This document shows, in pieces, positions 36,977 through 53,555 of a stretch of 64,000 bases of DNA. The position numbers and the translations under genes are program-made. Source of the stretch: a virus; the IMG/VR virus record IMGVR_UViG_3300018080_005419; one strand, 5' to 3'. The notes under the pieces are model-generated. The model was not told where the DNA came from, did not search any database, and saw only the letters and a list, made by a program, of their open reading frames with translations. Each line of letters starts with the position of its first letter. The stretch's first letter is position 1.

Positions 36977-37094
36977 TTTATCTCTCTAAAATTCAAATCA
37001 AACGACTTACCATTATAATACTTTCTTAGCTATAAAAACCAATTTATCTAAAAATTATAAATAACATCCTATACACCACGATCCTTTCTATATT

Positions 37095-41074: not shown

Positions 41075-41094
41075 TTACTCTCCTCTAAAAACAA

Positions 41095-41149
41095 ACCTAT
41101 CCTTTGCAGTTCTCTACTATCCATTGGTTTCTTTTCATCTTCAGTCCTT
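41095..41149 (-). repeat. Pentamer-periodic array D, (NN-GNA)n
   Basis: AAGGA CTGAA GATGA AAAGA AACCA ATGGA TAGTA GAGAA CTGCA AAGGA TAGGT; TATAAT at 41168-41163 just upstream. Confidence 0.65.
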
Positions 41150-41877: not shown

Positions 41878-42633
41878 TTATTTTAATGCCGACTTATTAA
41901 AAACATAAATAGAAGGAGGCTCGTTTTTTCCTTCATCTAATTTTACAGCTTTTAATTTTTTAGTTTTTGCTTCTGATATTGCTTCATCTATTGCATCTGG
42001 ATCGCCTGCATAAGGAAGATCATCAGCAATATATACATCTTCTAATTTTATACGCCTTACCTTCACTTCTTCAATCCTTCCAGTTTGTGTAAATTGAGCA
42101 GCCCATTCTTTATCTGTTGACCAATAGTTCCCATCTTTATTCCCTGTATATTCTCCTCTATATATTTCTATTTCTTTTGCTATTTTTACTCTCTTTTTGG
42201 TATAATCTGCTAAAAACTGAAGAGCTATATTGTCTGAAGCAAATTTTATTTCTTCTACTAGTTTTATTGATTTTGGATTATATATTACAACTCCTCCAAA
42301 ACTACCCTCGTCTCTTAGCCCGTCAATCTTATTTTTACGCATAATTTGATCAAAATCGTCTCTATGCATTAACCTCTCAAACTTATTATCTCTCCAAAGT
42401 GCAAAGTCTTCTGGTTTATCTAAATCTAAAATTCTAGCATTTGGATCTAATTTAAATTTGAGAACGACACCTTCATCTTCGGCAAAATCAGCATAGTTGC
42501 TTTGAGCCAATTCAGGATTTGTTGCTGTATAGAATCCTTTGCCAAAATACCCCTTGGTGCTTTTATCTATATCTACGCCTTTTTGTACAATATCTTTGGC
42601 GCTTTGTATGTCTGTGCCGTGATATAAATACAT
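41878..42633 (-). CDS. ADP-ribosyltransferase-fold protein (two ART-like domains)
   Basis: YLYHGT...FGKGFYTA (PARP-like) and a second domain IYRGE...YWSTDKEWAAQF. Confidence 0.6.
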   Translation of the reverse strand: MYLYHGTDIQSAKDIVQKGVDIDKSTKGYFGKGFYTATNPELAQSNYADFAEDEGVVLKFKLDPNARILDLDKPEDFALWRDNKFERLMHRDDFDQIMRKNKIDGLRDEGSFGGVVIYNPKSIKLVEEIKFASDNIALQFLADYTKKRVKIAKEIEIYRGEYTGNKDGNYWSTDKEWAAQFTQTGRIEEVKVRRIKLEDVYIADDLPYAGDPDAIDEAISEAKTKKLKAVKLDEGKNEPPSIYVFNKSALK

Positions 42634-42704: not shown

Positions 42705-43835
42705 CTACAACGAAACTTTTGCCTTTTTTACTGCTAAAGGCAATCTTCTTATTAATTCTTCAACTTCTCTATAATCCGAATATTTAGATAGACTTATACG
42801 AATAGTGCTATGTGCATCTAATGTGCTTAATCCGATTTCACTTAAAACATGACTTGCTACTGTTTGTCCTTCATTGCAAGCAGAACCAGAAGAACAACAA
42901 ATGCCGTATTTATTTAATTCATTTACAAGCATTTTTGATTCTGTTTCTGGGAATGTTATATTTAAAATTCCTGGAACTGTTTCTTCTATTTGGGAACCAT
43001 TTCTTTTTGCTCCTAAATTCATACTCTCAATCTTTTCCCACAATAGCATTTCCAATCTTTTTACAGTAATAAAATTATCAGGATTAATTAGTCTAGCTGC
43101 TTCACCCAATCCTGCAATACCCGGAACATTATGAGTACCTGCTCTTAAAGAATTTTCTTGATGACCACCTGACATAAATGGGAATAAATCAAAACCATCC
43201 CTAACATATAATGCTCCAATACCTTTAGGTCCATGAAATTTATGCGCCGAAAGAGATAACATATCAACACCAGAATTTACTGCATCTACATATATTTTAC
43301 CAACAGCTTGAACTGCATCTGTATGAAAGGCTATATTATATTTTTTACAAATTTGAACTATTTCATATATTGGTTGGATTGTCCCTATTTCATTATTAGC
43401 ATACATAATAGAAACTAAAGATGGTTTATATGTTTCTATTTGTTTTTCTAAAAAATCAAGATTTACATTGCCGTATTTGTTTATTGGAACATATTCGTAC
43501 TTTACACCAAATGTTTTCTTGAAATTTTGCAAAGTTTCTAAAATGGCATGATGTTCAATTGGAGATGTTATAACCACTTTTCTTTCTGATTGCGCTAACT
43601 GAGAATAAATAGCCCAATTGTTACTTTCTGTACCACCAGAGGTAAATATTATATTTTCTGGTTTGCACATTAACAATTTAGCAACATGAGATCTGGCTTC
43701 TTCAACTAGATCTTTTGCTTGTTTGCCAATTTCATGAGACGAAGAAGGATTGCCGTATAACTCAAATGCTTCGTTGATTTTTTTGACAACTTCTTCAGAT
43801 GGTTTGGTTGTAGCTGCATTATCGAAATATATCAT
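42705..43835 (-). CDS. iscS: Cysteine desulfurase (IscS/NifS)
   Basis: YFDNAATT, FTSGGTESNN, HTDAVQA, SAHKFHGPKG (PLP lysine) and SSGSAC (catalytic Cys). Confidence 0.95.
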   Translation of the reverse strand: MIYFDNAATTKPSEEVVKKINEAFELYGNPSSSHEIGKQAKDLVEEARSHVAKLLMCKPENIIFTSGGTESNNWAIYSQLAQSERKVVITSPIEHHAILETLQNFKKTFGVKYEYVPINKYGNVNLDFLEKQIETYKPSLVSIMYANNEIGTIQPIYEIVQICKKYNIAFHTDAVQAVGKIYVDAVNSGVDMLSLSAHKFHGPKGIGALYVRDGFDLFPFMSGGHQENSLRAGTHNVPGIAGLGEAARLINPDNFITVKRLEMLLWEKIESMNLGAKRNGSQIEETVPGILNITFPETESKMLVNELNKYGICCSSGSACNEGQTVASHVLSEIGLSTLDAHSTIRISLSKYSDYREVEELIRRLPLAVKKAKVSL

Positions 43836-45013: not shown

Positions 45014-45099
45014 TGGAGGAAGCAGTAGGACTTGAACCTTACATCTCAGCAAAGAGTTTTAGTCTCTTCCCTGTATTTTCCCAATTAAACTATACTTCC
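45014..45099 (-). tRNA. Atypical tRNA-like gene with a 10-bp anticodon stem, identity unassigned
   Basis: Acceptor GGAAGTA/TGCTTCC, U73-CCA, D-arm and T-loop TTCAAGT; anticodon arm CAGGGAAGAG-ACTAAAA-CTCTTTGCTG lacks U33. Confidence 0.6.
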
Positions 45100-45139: not shown

Positions 45140-45436
45140 TTATTTTTCGTTTTCTTGTTTTTTAGGTGTCTCATCCCATATTGGTCCTTCATAATTTTTT
45201 AAATTTTTCACATAGGGACAATCATTTGGAAGGGCACGTATCTGTATTGCTTGTTCGACTGTCAAACATTGTGGCTTTTTCTTAAACCTATTTTTATATA
45301 CGATACATAAATTCGTTTCTTCATCTAAATATTCACAATGTTGTTTTGTGAATAAATGAATACCACATACTATAGTTTTAATATAGCAGCATTTACCACA
45401 TTTTCTACATAATTTAGGATTGTGCTTTTGCTTCAT
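45140..45436 (-). CDS. YkgJ/YcgN-like cysteine-cluster protein
   Basis: CRKCGKCC...CEYLD...CIVYKNR...LPNDCPY. Confidence 0.75.
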   Translation of the reverse strand: MKQKHNPKLCRKCGKCCYIKTIVCGIHLFTKQHCEYLDEETNLCIVYKNRFKKKPQCLTVEQAIQIRALPNDCPYVKNLKNYEGPIWDETPKKQENEK

Positions 45437-45655
45437 TTTCTCTTATTTTTAACTTCTTATGCATATTCTTCCATCTTGTTTTTCTTAATAACCTCCCTAT
45501 GTAGAAATATTTGATTGCATGTTTTACATTTATACCACACATACAAAACACTTCCTTCCTGCTGTCTTTGATATTCCTCTAAATTTTCAAAATCGTGACA
45601 ACAATCTTTATTAAACATATCCACATTCATTTAAAAATTTCACTTTCTAAAAAAT

Positions 45656-45711
45656 ACCACTACGATGCTATACATTACATTCAATTCTAGTTACGCTCGG
45701 TTACGTTTCTA
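45656..45711 (-). repeat. Pentamer-periodic array A, directly after the RAMP-like operon
   Basis: TAGAA ACGTA ACCGA GCGTA ACTAGA ATTGA ATGTA ATGTA TAGCA TCGTA GTGGT (one 6-nt unit). Confidence 0.65.
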
Positions 45712-45714
45712 GAG

Positions 45715-46224
45715 TCACTTTCTCTTAAGAGTAATCAATCCTGGCGTTTTCCTTGCTGTTGCTTCTAACCTAAATTCAGCCTTAGTTCTCAAAACAGCCT
45801 GAAGAACTTTGCTCTGAAACATAACCGTTCTATTGTGTTCTTCTCTTGTTTCTTCTTCTAGTTCATTAGCAGCTACATGCATATTTTTCTCATGTGTCCT
45901 GGCTAAACCTGCAACATGACAATTAAATCTTTTTCGATTATATTCAGATGCTTCTTCGTGTGTTAAAATTTTAATTTGACCTTCTCGAATACAAATAGTT
46001 GCATACATATCTCGCGCTTTAAGTTCAGCATCTAACAATTGCATAAAACGAATTTGTTTAAACTTAAAGTCTTCGTCTTCTTCTTTAACACCGTAATATT
46101 CTTCAATAACAGAATTAGGGATAATCTGGCCAAAATCACAAGAACTAAAATCCATAGGCCATTTTTCATGACCAGTTACATCAACAACACCATCTCTTTG
46201 CTTAATAGAAGGGGGTGGGGCCAT
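45715..46224 (-). CDS. Hypothetical partner of the RAMP-like gene
   Basis: 169-aa ORF between the RAMP-like gene and array A. Confidence 0.65.
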   Translation of the reverse strand: MAPPPSIKQRDGVVDVTGHEKWPMDFSSCDFGQIIPNSVIEEYYGVKEEDEDFKFKQIRFMQLLDAELKARDMYATICIREGQIKILTHEEASEYNRKRFNCHVAGLARTHEKNMHVAANELEEETREEHNRTVMFQSKVLQAVLRTKAEFRLEATARKTPGLITLKRK

Positions 46225-46256
46225 GTTTTTTCTCCTTTATTATGTTAATTCCTTTA

Positions 46257-46853
46257 TTATGTTAATTCCTTTGCCTCTTCCAATTCAAATCTTCCATACT
46301 TTGGTCGCCAATCACTAAGACCAATAATACGACCAGCAGTAGAAACAAAACCTGCAATTTGTTCACCATCCAAAATATCAGGAAGATAATGAACAGTAAA
46401 ATTGATACTCCACTCCCTAAAAATAGGTCTTGTTCTCATTACTCTCGACCTATTTACAACTGCTGGAACTCTTGAAACAAAAGGATTGTTAGGAAACTTT
46501 TTAAATCCCCAAAGCCCCTCAGCATTCTTAGGACCTTCATACTCAATAGTACAATTATCATGCACAAAAAGACCAGCCTTTGCCGATGGACCCTGTTTTG
46601 ATTTCTTGGCTGCCGCAATCAACATAGCCTCAACATTTTCACTAGGCCAACACGGTCTGCCTTTATCATCCAAATATAACCCTGAATGCCATTCAATTCT
46701 TGCCAATTCCATATGATCATCATCTGTCTTATTCTTTTTAGACGAGATTTTCTTCATGTCTTTGGCAAATGGATTAAGAGGATCAGCAGTTTGACCATTG
46801 CACATAATGGTCGGTACAACACCTTTGATTCTAAATTGCATTGACTTATACAT
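46257..46853 (-). CDS. Stand-alone RAMP/Cas7-like protein
   Basis: Start MYKSMQFRIKGVVPTIM; WPSENVEAMLIAAAK, RVMRTRPIF and the C-terminal Gly-rich loop GRIIGLSDWRPKYGRFEL. Confidence 0.65.
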   Translation of the reverse strand: MYKSMQFRIKGVVPTIMCNGQTADPLNPFAKDMKKISSKKNKTDDDHMELARIEWHSGLYLDDKGRPCWPSENVEAMLIAAAKKSKQGPSAKAGLFVHDNCTIEYEGPKNAEGLWGFKKFPNNPFVSRVPAVVNRSRVMRTRPIFREWSINFTVHYLPDILDGEQIAGFVSTAGRIIGLSDWRPKYGRFELEEAKELT

Positions 46854-46955
46854 TCTTCTTCTCCTTTTCTTTCCTAAAATAGGCAAACACAAAAACAACT
46901 GACTATATCATTATAGTCATGTCGGAAAAGAAAAAGAGGTAAAAACTGAAAATAT

Positions 46956-47976: not shown

Positions 47977-48195
47977 TTAATCTTCAAGGGGACAATCTTT
48001 AAGAATTTTCTTCATCAATTTTATTTCATCAACATCAATACCCAAAGCACTTGAAATTCTTTGAGCTTTATCTTTTATTTTTTTAGGAGCATACAAACAA
48101 GCAGCTACTCCATCCAAAGAAGATTGAATTTCTTTTATATCTTCTTTAATTTGATTTAGTTTATTTTTGATCTCATGTTGCTGTTCTTTGTTCAT
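47977..48195 (-). CDS. Small coiled-coil protein
   Basis: 72-aa ORF. Confidence 0.45.
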
Positions 48196-48413
48196 TTTTC
48201 TCTTCTTAATATTCTTCCTCTGGTCAAATCATAAGGCGTAATCTCAAGATCTACTTTATCACCAGGAATGACCCTAATAAAGTTTTTTCTCATTTTTCCA
48301 CAAAGATGAGCAAGAACAATATAATCTTGATCATCTATCTTTACCTTAAACATAGCATTTGGTAAAGCTTCAATTACTTTTCCTGTTACTTGAATTCCCT
48401 CTTCTTTTGCCAT
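48192..48413 (-). CDS. infA: Translation initiation factor IF-1
   Basis: [24 protein letters not shown]...[19 protein letters not shown]...PYDLTRGRI. Confidence 0.95.
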
Positions 48414-48594: not shown

Positions 48595-49023
48595 TTAGCT
48601 AATAGAGATTCTCCTTGTCTTATTGGCCTCAGATTTTGGAAGCTTGATCAACAGAATACCATCTTTTAACTCTGCTTCAGCCTTATCAACATCTACATCT
48701 GGTAAAGAGAGCGAGCGAGAGTAAGATGAGCAAAACTGTTCATCAACAATAATCTTTTCTTTTTCTTTCCTTTCTTTTTCTTTCTTCTTTGCTTTCAGAG
48801 TTAGCATACCCTGTTCATACGAAATGTCCACTGATTTTTTATCAATTCCTGGCATTTCGGCACTAATTTCATATCCATCCTCATTCTCTACTATTTTAAC
48901 GGGTGGCGCTACTTCATTAAACAAAAAACCGGGCCATTTTTTTAAACCTTTCTCAAATAAATTGTCAAAATCATTCCAAACAGTTGACGGACTACTATTT
49001 CTTCTTTGCATTAAACCGTACAT
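48595..49023 (-). CDS. Small heat shock protein Hsp20
   Basis: AEMPG...ISYEQGMLTL...YSRSLSLP...AELKDGILLIKLPK alpha-crystallin motifs. Confidence 0.9.
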   Translation of the reverse strand: MYGLMQRRNSSPSTVWNDFDNLFEKGLKKWPGFLFNEVAPPVKIVENEDGYEISAEMPGIDKKSVDISYEQGMLTLKAKKKEKERKEKEKIIVDEQFCSSYSRSLSLPDVDVDKAEAELKDGILLIKLPKSEANKTRRISIS

Positions 49024-49129: not shown

Positions 49130-50035
49130 CTAAACCATGTCATTTTGACCTAATTCTTTTTCGGTATCTTTTCTTAACTCTGACAAAATGCTATTAAAAT
49201 AAGAGAATAAATAAAAGAAAATAAGACTGATTCCGATAAAGGCTATTCCACAATCAAAAATTAAGAACATCAATGAAAAAAGCACAAACAGAATTCTCAA
49301 TATGTTAATAAAGAAAATTGCTTTATCCCATTTTTCTAGTTCTGATTTTAAAAATAAATTTAGTTCTTTTTTGTTAGATAAAGCATGAAAACTACCGTTC
49401 TTGTCCATTACACTGCTTTTCTCGCCCTTGCTATCCATTATTTTTGGTTTACATCATCTACGACTTCTTTAACTAATTCTTCCGGCGTTTTCTTTAGATC
49501 TTCTTCTGTTAAACCAAAGCTTATCCATTCATTATTCAAAAGAAAACTAAATACCAACTTATCTTTCAAATCTCCATAGACTCCATATGTTATATTTGCT
49601 TTGGCATTCCTTTTATTTGGGAAATTCTTATCGATTTCTTGCAGTATACTTCTTGTCCAATCTAATCCAGGTTTTATTTCTGACATTTTAATCCCCCAAC
49701 TTATAGATTTGGTTAATTTCCATTTGATCTATATTGCCAAGTGTTTTAAACAAAGGATCATTTATAATTTCATCAATATTTCGAATTGCAGAAACAACTT
49801 TTCCTTGGTCATAATATGGATAGCCATTTTCATATTGAGAATTTGTTGCGTCGAAAATCTCACCATTGACAATATTCCAGAAATGGTGCGTTTCTCCTTC
49901 TTTTAGTCCAGGTCCCATCATCAAAGGAACACCAAAGATCAGAGAAATAGTCCCAGAATAGAAAAAACAATGGTCTATCGGATGTTTTACGTTTTCTTCT
50001 GCCCATTCTACAACTTCTTCTAGAACAGTCACCAT
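49130..50035 (-). CDS. Three small hypothetical ORFs (49130-49438 membrane, 49438-49686, 49688-50035)
   Basis: Abutting ORFs in the main orientation. Confidence 0.5.
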
Positions 50036-51511: not shown

Positions 51512-51524
51512 GAATTATAAATAA

Positions 51525-51584
51525 CCCCATCCAGTACATTCTTCTACGTTTCTTTACCCTGCTCTGCCCTCCTATACAATCCTC
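51525..51584 (-). repeat. Pentamer-periodic array B, (NN-GNA)n
   Basis: GAGGA TTGTA TAGGA GGGCA GAGCA GGGTA AAGAA ACGTA GAAGA ATGTA CTGGA TGGGG; A ends 11/11 units and G is at position 3 in 10/11. Confidence 0.8.
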
Positions 51585-51587
51585 TTA

Positions 51588-52568: not shown

Positions 52569-52787
52569 TTTCTCCTTGAAACAAAAAATTAAACGTTTTG
52601 TTTATCCTCTAAAATTGTAATCCTGTATATTTCCTTGCACTTAAAACACTTATAGCCCAAGGTTGAAACTACAAATTGATTATTGCTATCCTTTTCTTCT
52701 TCTACGTATCCTATCCAAAAGAAATGCTCAGAGCCACACATTTCACATTTTAAACTCTTCATTAAACCTCTCTTTCTAAAAATTTAA

Positions 52788-52837
52788 ACCGTTCGTCTAC
52801 GTTTCTCTACAATCGAGTGCTATACTCTACTATCTTG
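52788..52837 (-). repeat. Pentamer-periodic array C, (NN-GNA)n
   Basis: CAAGA TAGTA GAGTA TAGCA CTCGA TTGTA GAGAA ACGTA GACGA ACGGT, overlapping the stop codon of 52830-53555. Confidence 0.7.
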
Positions 52838-53555
52838 CTCCTTTTTTAAAATCCCTATTTTGCATATTCTGTTCCCATTCTTCGATCCCTATCATTTCAT
52901 GTCTCAACAGTCTTCCTACTTCATGATTAGGATAAAAGTCCAACATTTCCTCGCAACAATACTCAAGTAACACTAAAAGATCAATTCTAAATTTATCGTC
53001 TTTTGTGTCGCCATTCCAAAAACTTTGCCTTATATGAAACTCTAATAGCTCTTTTCTTTTGTCGTTGTACTTCTCTTCTAGTTCAGTTGTTGCATTTTCA
53101 CCGTTTATTTGCCAATCTAATATTTTTGTTATTTCTCTTTCTGGAAATTGACTCTTTAATAGGTTAAGACAAAATATCAAAGATTTCTTAATTCTTTTGA
53201 CAGCTAGTGTTTCCGTCAGGTCATAATCTTCCCACTCAAACATCTCTCCAATTTCATCGTCTAAATCGGCCTCAAATATATCTAAAGCTTCCCAGGCAAA
53301 ATCATGCGTATCATTATCAACCCAAATATATTTTTCAGCCTCAATAGACTCAGCAAAACCCTCAATGCCGAAATTGTCCATAATTGTATAACCAGCAATA
53401 CACGGATCACCTCTCCAATCTTCCTCTCTTACATTCCATCCATTCTTGGGCAAAATTTCCAATATTTGCTTAATTTGCCACGGAGTAAGATGCTTCTTTT
53501 TAACTGTAAAAGAAGCAGAACTAGAATTACTGACAAATCCAAGTCTAATTTTCAT
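52830..53555 (-). CDS. Hypothetical protein with N-terminal GFVSNSSS motif
   Basis: MKIRLGFVSNSSSASF, a motif I recognise from uncharacterised phage proteins. Confidence 0.6.
   Translation of the reverse strand: MKIRLGFVSNSSSASFTVKKKHLTPWQIKQILEILPKNGWNVREEDWRGDPCIAGYTIMDNFGIEGFAESIEAEKYIWVDNDTHDFAWEALDIFEADLDDEIGEMFEWEDYDLTETLAVKRIKKSLIFCLNLLKSQFPEREITKILDWQINGENATTELEEKYNDKRKELLEFHIRQSFWNGDTKDDKFRIDLLVLLEYCCEEMLDFYPNHEVGRLLRHEMIGIEEWEQNMQNRDFKKGAR

Follow-up and report, generated by a model that had tools for sequence, protein, structure and literature searches.

A probable VIPR locus with G-N-A/NN arrays and a candidate autoregulatory guide in an uncultured huge phage

VIPR systems combine the Vipr protein, an ancestral RAMP, with vap genes and with vrRNAs of 9-16 GGY/NN units, whose targets are recognized with one base skipped (10.64898/2026.04.26.720920). 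The text of that preprint also names the variant units NNNGG, YNNNG and NNNNG, and the text of a study of non-canonical units found through entropy periodicity names GAC/NN, CAC/NN, WGT/NN and TGH/NN and speaks of 21 clusters (10.64898/2026.10.21.760802). Solo vrRNAs and multi-copy REP targets have been reported as well, and a guide of six units with a footprint of 18 bp occurs naturally in SUSP1 (vrRNA4; 10.64898/2026.10.15.759431). Here we analyze a 64-kb stretch of the IMG/VR virus record IMGVR_UViG_3300018080_005419, called the window below, in which a vipr gene, a partner gene and a tract of five-nucleotide units lie together. Judging from sequence comparisons and computed target matches, we consider it highly probable that this locus is the VIPR system of a phage of about 280 kb, composed of a vipr-vap operon and at least five vrRNA-like arrays on the same strand, of which one (El1) would act on the operon's own promoter and another (El2) on FG-GAP genes.

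The preliminary description of this stretch had offered the two genes and the tract as a candidate non-CRISPR RNA-guided module. Rather than an undescribed module, the system is a member of the published VIPR family, which the same description had correctly characterized by its GGY/NN RNAs (10.64898/2026.04.26.720920). VIPR, variant units and solo vrRNAs have thus already been published (2026 preprints), and the new part is a probable autoregulatory guide. The coordinates confirm the individual parts as first described, namely a 198-amino-acid protein with a C-terminal Gly-rich loop, a 169-amino-acid partner and a tract beginning 3 nucleotides (nt) past the partner's TGA stop. The operon, the tract and its predicted target are laid out as follows.

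46257-46853, minus strand: vipr, encoding a 198-amino-acid ancestral RAMP/Cas7-like protein (profile match to SUSP1 Vipr, AlphaFold2 model, Foldseek).
45715-46224, minus strand: vap-like accessory gene encoding 169 amino acids (synteny with vipr, AlphaFold2 model).
45654-45708, minus strand: El1, the tract of the preliminary description, 10 units and a terminal GGT, with a U-run at 45644-45653.
46898-46914, minus strand: predicted El1 DNA target of 17 bp, 45-61 nt upstream of the vipr ATG.

Like the type II VIPR systems of SUSP1 and of a Pseudomonas fulva prophage (10.64898/2026.04.26.720920; 10.64898/2026.04.26.720927), the locus has a two-gene vipr-vap phage operon, gene-strand arrays of 8-12 five-nucleotide units nearby and the key contact residues, and one-base-skip decoding yields sensible computed matches here. 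Unlike them, it has G-N-A instead of GGY, Cys in place of H17, and GG(T/G) with a U-run instead of a pseudoknot tail; moreover, its arrays are dispersed, at distances of up to 6 kb from vipr, and one guide matches the system's own promoter. A Vipr-like fold beside period-5 arrays with a non-GGY triplet is a feature shared with the published non-canonical VIPR systems (10.64898/2026.10.21.760802). The text of that study does not name G-N-A, with positions 1 and 3 fixed and the middle free, as a motif, and the present clade could be one of its 21 clusters. With solo vrRNAs the locus has in common that guides are encoded apart from vipr, that a six-unit guide occurs (a natural one with an 18-bp footprint in the published case), and that repeated sequences and VIPR loci are the (here predicted) targets. 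However, solo vrRNAs reside in satellites or phages that lack vipr and they spare their own locus, whereas the arrays of the window share a genome with vipr (10.64898/2026.10.15.759431). The running text of these preprints names no G-N-A unit, no arrays dispersed behind unrelated genes in a vipr-carrying huge phage, no own-promoter guide and no FG-GAP guide, and the one preprint checked for a self-regulating VIPR guide (10.64898/2026.10.15.759431) does not mention any.

Both sequence and fold identify the 198-amino-acid protein as a genuine homolog of Vipr. A profile of 40 homologs matched SUSP1 Vipr (PDB 36pp_D) with an E-value of 7.9e-48, residues 4-188 aligning onto 2-188, and the single sequence used as query reached 1.3e-23; the two proteins are about 31% identical over their full length. 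An AlphaFold2 model of high confidence (predicted local distance difference test, pLDDT, of 94) gave 75 Foldseek matches at E <= 0.001 with Cmr4, Csm3 and type VII Cas7 on top. Together with the full-length homology to SUSP1 Vipr, this Cas7/Csm3-like fold substantiates the RAMP/Cas7-like identity proposed initially. The predicted structure displays the single-RRM RAMP fold, the glycine-rich loop and the thumb of Vipr proteins, the thumb being, as we infer from the model, the hairpin at residues 126-145 that bears R142. The Gly-rich loop is the one quoted in the preliminary description; it lies at the C-terminus, and the G-loop motif does not vary among family members. RRM/RAMP fold, G-loop and thumb hairpin are also found in Csm3 and Cmr4 (E 2e-6 to 3e-4, template modelling score about 0.5), from which Vipr is set apart by an identity of 8-13%, a step of 5 nt compared to 6 nt in CRISPR effectors and the lack of a CRISPR array nearby.

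In SUSP1 Vipr, the residues H17, D177, R138, W178, R179 and K33 read repeat and target, and alanine at D177, R138 or K33 abolishes function (10.64898/2026.04.26.720927). Five of these six are kept in the window protein (D177 as D181, R138 as R142, K33 as K34, W178 as W182 and R179 as R183), and H17 is replaced by Cys18 in window Vipr and its subclade. We considered this replacement as the cause of a loss of reading at the first G of the triplet (G1) and found no support for this in the data, since the window keeps G1 while the relative L010 keeps the second G (G2). Homologs start at the same Met-Tyr as the vipr ATG at 46853 and give no support to a longer frame beginning with a TTG at 46898. 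The family comprises 527 proteins at E <= 0.001, and among the matches listed 31 proteins, all of them metagenome-derived, are at least 54% identical to window Vipr. The protein falls into phrog_4652 (function unknown) of PHROGs, and searches of Pfam and PADLOC returned nothing for it.

vipr and the partner gene are spaced by 32 nt on one strand and form a two-gene operon; both genes, as well as the tract after the partner gene, are on the minus strand. This corresponds to the layout of VIPR systems, a minimal operon of vipr and an accessory gene, mostly viral and with no CRISPR array or cas genes beside it. In more than 25 loci, some of which have canonical GG arrays, homologs of the partner identified by tblastn directly adjoin vipr, and the partner is therefore a conserved accessory gene. 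Its AlphaFold2 model (pLDDT 84) consists of a small alpha/beta, winged-helix-like domain and a long helical hairpin. Foldseek found weak winged-helix matches only (E > 0.3), and a VIA-align comparison was dominated by the helical hairpin and hence uninformative. Sequence searches with the partner protein against Pfam, PHROG, PADLOC and PDB gave no match. Alignment of the partner family to wV8 gp095 with hhalign gave a probability of 9%, with a shared N-terminal motif only, and homology of the partner to SUSP1-type vap1 is unproven.

The 64-kb window contains no CRISPR-like repeat array, and in this respect the initial statement that it has neither a CRISPR array nor a cas gene stands. The part on cas genes rests on the neighbouring open reading frames (ORFs) that were scanned, a portion of those in the window, among which Pfam detected no Cas family. 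PADLOC models matched neither operon protein, and the CRISPR array and the Cas10, Cas5 and small-subunit genes that characterize type III CRISPR-Cas are absent from the locus. The window is AT-rich (32.5% GC), carries 18 tRNA genes according to ARAGORN and one more according to Rfam, and is part of a 280,011-bp contig. Its source is an uncultured huge phage of roughly 280 kb.

A unit matrix trained on other loci detected four further arrays in the window, all of which outscore El1. They are given below, together with a short remnant.

51523-51587, minus strand: El2, the cleanest array, 12 units (A at position 3 in 12/12, G at position 1 in 10/12) and a terminal GGG; its start falls on the stop codon of the ORF upstream, and a hairpin comes after it.
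52786-52840, minus strand: El3, 10 units, a terminal GGT and a U-run, overlapping the stop codon of the ORF at 52830-53555.
49392-49436, minus strand: El4, 8 units, a terminal GGT and a U-run, overlapping the mechanical start of the ORF at 49130-49438.
41093-41147, minus strand: El5, intergenic, 10 units, a terminal GGT and a U-run, with a promoter-like site (41185-41158) just upstream.
37062-37091, minus strand: short remnant, which resembles El2 in the 3' part of that array.

Pooling the 49 units of the five arrays, we found A at position 3 in 94% and G at position 1 in 73%, a mixed position 2, and positions 4-5 near background. The best array has 8/8 'G.A..' units, compared to a maximum of 6 in 200 shuffles. 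Each array closes with a GG(T/G) unit, after which comes a U-run, and the arrays are spread over at least 12 kb, abutting unrelated genes. Tandem pentanucleotides with a fixed triplet and a variable NN are thus present next to vipr, as is typical of VIPR arrays. Canonical GGY arrays, made up of four or more YNNGG units, have no counterpart here: no stretch of eight units in the window holds at least five YNNGG or at least six NNNGG units, which, given the published variants, is compatible with membership of the family. El4 coincides with the first ~14 codons of a mechanically called 102-amino-acid ORF (49130-49438, minus strand), and the start of this ORF, or the ORF itself, is doubtful.

In El1, A recurs every 5 nt in nine of ten units and G precedes it by two bases in five of ten. 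The matrix score of 13.1 compares with a shuffle maximum of 10.8 on average (standard deviation 3.3), Tandem Repeats Finder did not report El1, and its periodicity taken alone is modest. However, L015 has an element in the corresponding position behind the partner gene to which El1 is ~80% identical, and El1 is homologous to elements in three more relatives (L003, L004 and L006). Because of these homologous elements, the four cleaner arrays on the same strand and the confinement of arrays to the vipr strand throughout the clade, we regard El1 as more than a chance pattern. When IMG/VR was scanned with a DNA pattern for elements similar to El1, 63 loci came up, none with vipr nearby, and these were discarded as chance matches.

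We wondered how a G-N-A unit relates to the GGY unit of other VIPR systems. Phage wV8, which served for calibration, carries plain GGT/NN arrays on both sides of vipr-vap, and most of 160 homolog loci likewise carry plain GG arrays; the relatives with canonical arrays divide into 120 with GGY and 14 with GGA. The close clade (at least 55% identity, all AT-rich) has a GG array in no locus. Its loci carry period-5 elements with an invariant A beside vipr-vap, and every array found in 14 of these loci is on the vipr strand. Adjacent pentamer tracts, which the preliminary description expected at homologous loci, are therefore present and share the strand of vipr. Across 158 loci (L001-L162), Ser at window position 180 (Gly176 in SUSP1) coincides with GGA/NN in 14 loci, with the absence of a GG array in 15 (the close clade) and with GGY in none, while Gly, Cys, Met or Leu at this position coincides with GGY in 120 loci and with GGA in none. 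Window Vipr carries Ser180. Because Ser180 Viprs pair with GGA/NN, we take the invariant A to be triplet position 3, and G-loop residue 180 is a candidate determinant of this position (A versus pyrimidine); the link between Ser180 and GGA is one at the level of clades, not of independent events. Read in this way, the triplet of the AT-rich clade is G-N-A, with a nearly invariant A, a frequent G and a free middle base, and replaces GGY. The Ser180/GGA link, the background-like positions 4-5 and the non-random decoding described below all agree with the frame chosen at the outset, GNA/NN with NN being the two bases after A. A different frame, an A-N-Y triplet with a GG-rich NN, had been suggested by the most-divergent positions and was rejected in view of the Ser180/GGA link, of the background-like positions 4-5 and of the fact that decoding works only in the frame chosen at the outset.

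For decoding we applied the published rule NNx, in which NN is read with one target base skipped. Units 5-10 of El1 (45659-45688) form a guide core that matches the vipr promoter region. Over both strands of the window, this core has one exact match (12/12), where 0.03 are expected by chance, and it is the single exact site in the 128 kb scanned on both strands. The site shares bases with a TATAAT hexamer and with an 8-bp inverted repeat (46900-46919), and none of 20000 random guides reached 12/12 in the 102-nt region upstream of vipr. El2-El5 showed no self match of the El1 kind. In L003, a different array adjacent to vap matches two sites in that locus' own 164-nt vipr-upstream region (13/14 and 12/14; 7/20000 in the corresponding null), the second of them just 5' of a TATAAT, and all three L003 matches lie inside the vipr-upstream region. 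These data suggest that the El1 match to the promoter region marks a probable autoregulatory guide, acting by autogenous feedback, which is not general across loci. As El1 is probably part of the operon transcript, the feedback on vipr-vap-El1 would be negative. Autoregulatory guides are known from CRISPR-Cas, in the form of the long-form tracrRNA of S. pyogenes Cas9 and the CreR-type Cas-regulating RNAs. There, too, a short or partial guide brings about feedback repression by leading the effector to its own promoter, although the effector is of another family.

A different use of the same guide would be against other phages: El1 might be aimed at the vipr promoters of related competitors, or act as a decoy, and match its own promoter as a by-product of shared ancestry. 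Solo vrRNAs of the SUSP1 family indeed target the VIPR systems of relatives (10.64898/2026.10.15.759431), and two distinct phages, L015 and L006, keep the NN core of El1. Published guides, however, spare their own locus (10.64898/2026.10.15.759431, Supplementary Fig. 3A legend), whereas the own site is matched here at 12/12. Moreover, El1 is located in the operon that it would silence, and L003 arrives at the same end with another array and another promoter sequence. We therefore consider a function between phages unlikely.

Exact six-unit self-matches at most 300 nt upstream of vipr were also observed in the canonical GGY loci L141 (~2760, plus strand) and L051/L053 (~2700, minus strand), and controls for upstream self-matches of this type gave one. 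L141, L051 and L053 may be further self-targeting cases.

El2 points to a target of another kind. Ten of its units gave 12 exact matches in bacterial genomes, where ~1 is expected for uniform sequence. All 12 are in frame and fall on the core of FG-GAP repeats in large surface proteins, and the two El2 units left out of the search match in all 12 cases as well, giving 24/24 bases. With up to three mismatches allowed, the full El2 pattern occurred at 68 sites in five genomes compared to 0 for the reversed control, and the sites are spaced about 147-150 nt within genes. The matches suggest genes for FG-GAP repeats as the targets of El2; they indicate the class of target only, because the matched genomes are unlikely hosts. 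No target for El3 was found in the five genomes with El2 matches, and a target search of all gathered sequence in both frames gave nothing beyond shuffled-order controls.

Reading the locus as a VIPR system with a self-directed El1 and an FG-GAP-directed El2 has to contend with several observations. In orthologous arrays, triplet positions 1-2 differ at 28/93 sites and positions 4-5 at 11/92, while the A never changes; the triplet thus changes more than NN, the reverse of a hypervariable NN, and the low NN divergence fits only if targets are conserved and G1 and the middle base are weakly read. Cys takes the place of H17, the reader of G1 in SUSP1, and still G1 is, of the two G's, the one that the window preserves better. 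The promoter region is matched by 6/10 El1 units only, the first four having no match, and of about seven close-clade loci with an upstream region only two show a promoter match. A self-targeting survey of 138 canonical loci gave 9 real and 3 control matches, a weak excess, and published surveys report no self-targeting at >= 80% NN match (10.64898/2026.04.26.720920). The FG-GAP matches of El2 sit in GC-rich metagenome-assembled genomes, which are unlikely hosts. The initial proposal that NN encodes a gapped target is backed by the computed matches of El1 to its own promoter and of El2 to FG-GAP genes, and it gains nothing from exact target scans of IMG/VR, which found no match for El1, El2 (9 units), El3 or El5. 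Lastly, the El1 region shows no predicted folding beyond that of shuffles (z = -0.44), Rfam has no family matching El1, and a conserved structured 3' tail, such as the pseudoknot described for the SUSP1 clade only, was not found.

El1 is, in addition, the most degenerate of the five window arrays, and it could be a decayed or non-functional remnant that matches the promoter by chance, with only El2-El5 being working vrRNAs. The poor fit of its first four units, a G1 in just 5/10 units and a matrix score of 13.1, within the reach of shuffles, would agree with decay. Against this, position and sequence of El1 are conserved in relatives, the A phase is intact in 9/10 units, El1 shares the terminal GGT unit and the U-run of the other arrays, and the promoter match reaches an empirical p < 1e-4, with a replicate in L003. 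A remnant is, in our view, decidedly improbable. Even further from the data is the idea that the arrays are not guide RNAs but act at the DNA or mRNA level, for instance as elements of a 3' untranslated region or of a terminator, or as sites that the winged-helix-like partner binds, an idea to which we give very little credence. In favour of such a role, every array adjoins the 3' end of a gene and finishes in a U-run, and no structured tail of the SUSP1 vrRNA kind was found. However, it would leave unexplained the strict 5-nt phase with one invariant base, one frequent base and two free positions, the tight link to vipr across more than 150 loci and the non-random decoding with one skipped base.

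If the locus is the VIPR system that we propose, its mode of action can be modelled on its SUSP1 homolog. Vipr protomers would polymerise on the array RNA, one per five nucleotides, each hiding the triplet and offering the next two bases. These NN would pair with double-stranded DNA, skipping each third target base, and the bound complex would stop transcription. El1, encoded just after vap, would direct the complex to the TATAAT/palindrome promoter of its own operon, resulting in negative feedback, and the FG-GAP repeats would give El2 many binding sites per gene. More tentatively, and with less confidence than doubt, we propose for the huge-phage lineage as a whole that the code was relaxed to G-N-A/NN, that arrays became scattered behind unrelated genes and that guides may serve the shutdown of the own promoter as well as the tiling of FG-GAP surface genes.

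The surroundings of the operon were inspected as well. A 17-nt tandem duplication (2.4 copies, 100% match), reported by Tandem Repeats Finder, extends over the stop codon of vipr and the partner gene's ribosome-binding region.

46233-46272, no strand assigned: 17-nt tandem duplication.

Two small Cys-rich ORFs (45140-45436 and 45457-45630, minus strand) lie downstream of El1, one of which has a weak match to a CxxCxxCC zinc/iron-chelating domain (E 0.002). 3' of them is the tRNA detected by Rfam only (45017-45099, minus strand, 39.9 bits, above gathering) and missed by ARAGORN. Further genes on the minus strand encode a class-V aminotransferase/cysteine desulfurase (42705-43835, E 9e-80), translation initiation factor IF-1 (48192-48410, E 1e-22) and an Hsp20 chaperone (48595-49023, E 9e-21). 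A cysteine desulfurase is also close to vipr in the relative L004 (on the same 14,044-bp contig), and as a clue to the host the phage cysteine desulfurase was uninformative. The 251-amino-acid ORF at 41878-42633 (minus strand) has sub-threshold Pfam matches to DUF3990 and to the catalytic domains of PARP and exotoxin A (E 3e-5 to 6e-4), and its product may be a phage ADP-ribosyltransferase.

These data extend VIPR, described only in 2026 and from cultured-phage and NCBI data, to AT-rich huge uncultured phages, and they illustrate that a drift of the repeat triplet to G-N-A is compatible with retention of the RNA-contact residues. The FG-GAP decoding exemplifies how a wobble-skipping code lets one guide track a protein motif across divergent genes; if true, tiling of surface-protein genes by El2 might, for instance, reduce a receptor and prevent superinfection. 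Should the promoter match be functional, El1 would be the first self-regulating VIPR guide and would offer a compact feedback design for the engineering of VIPR repressors.

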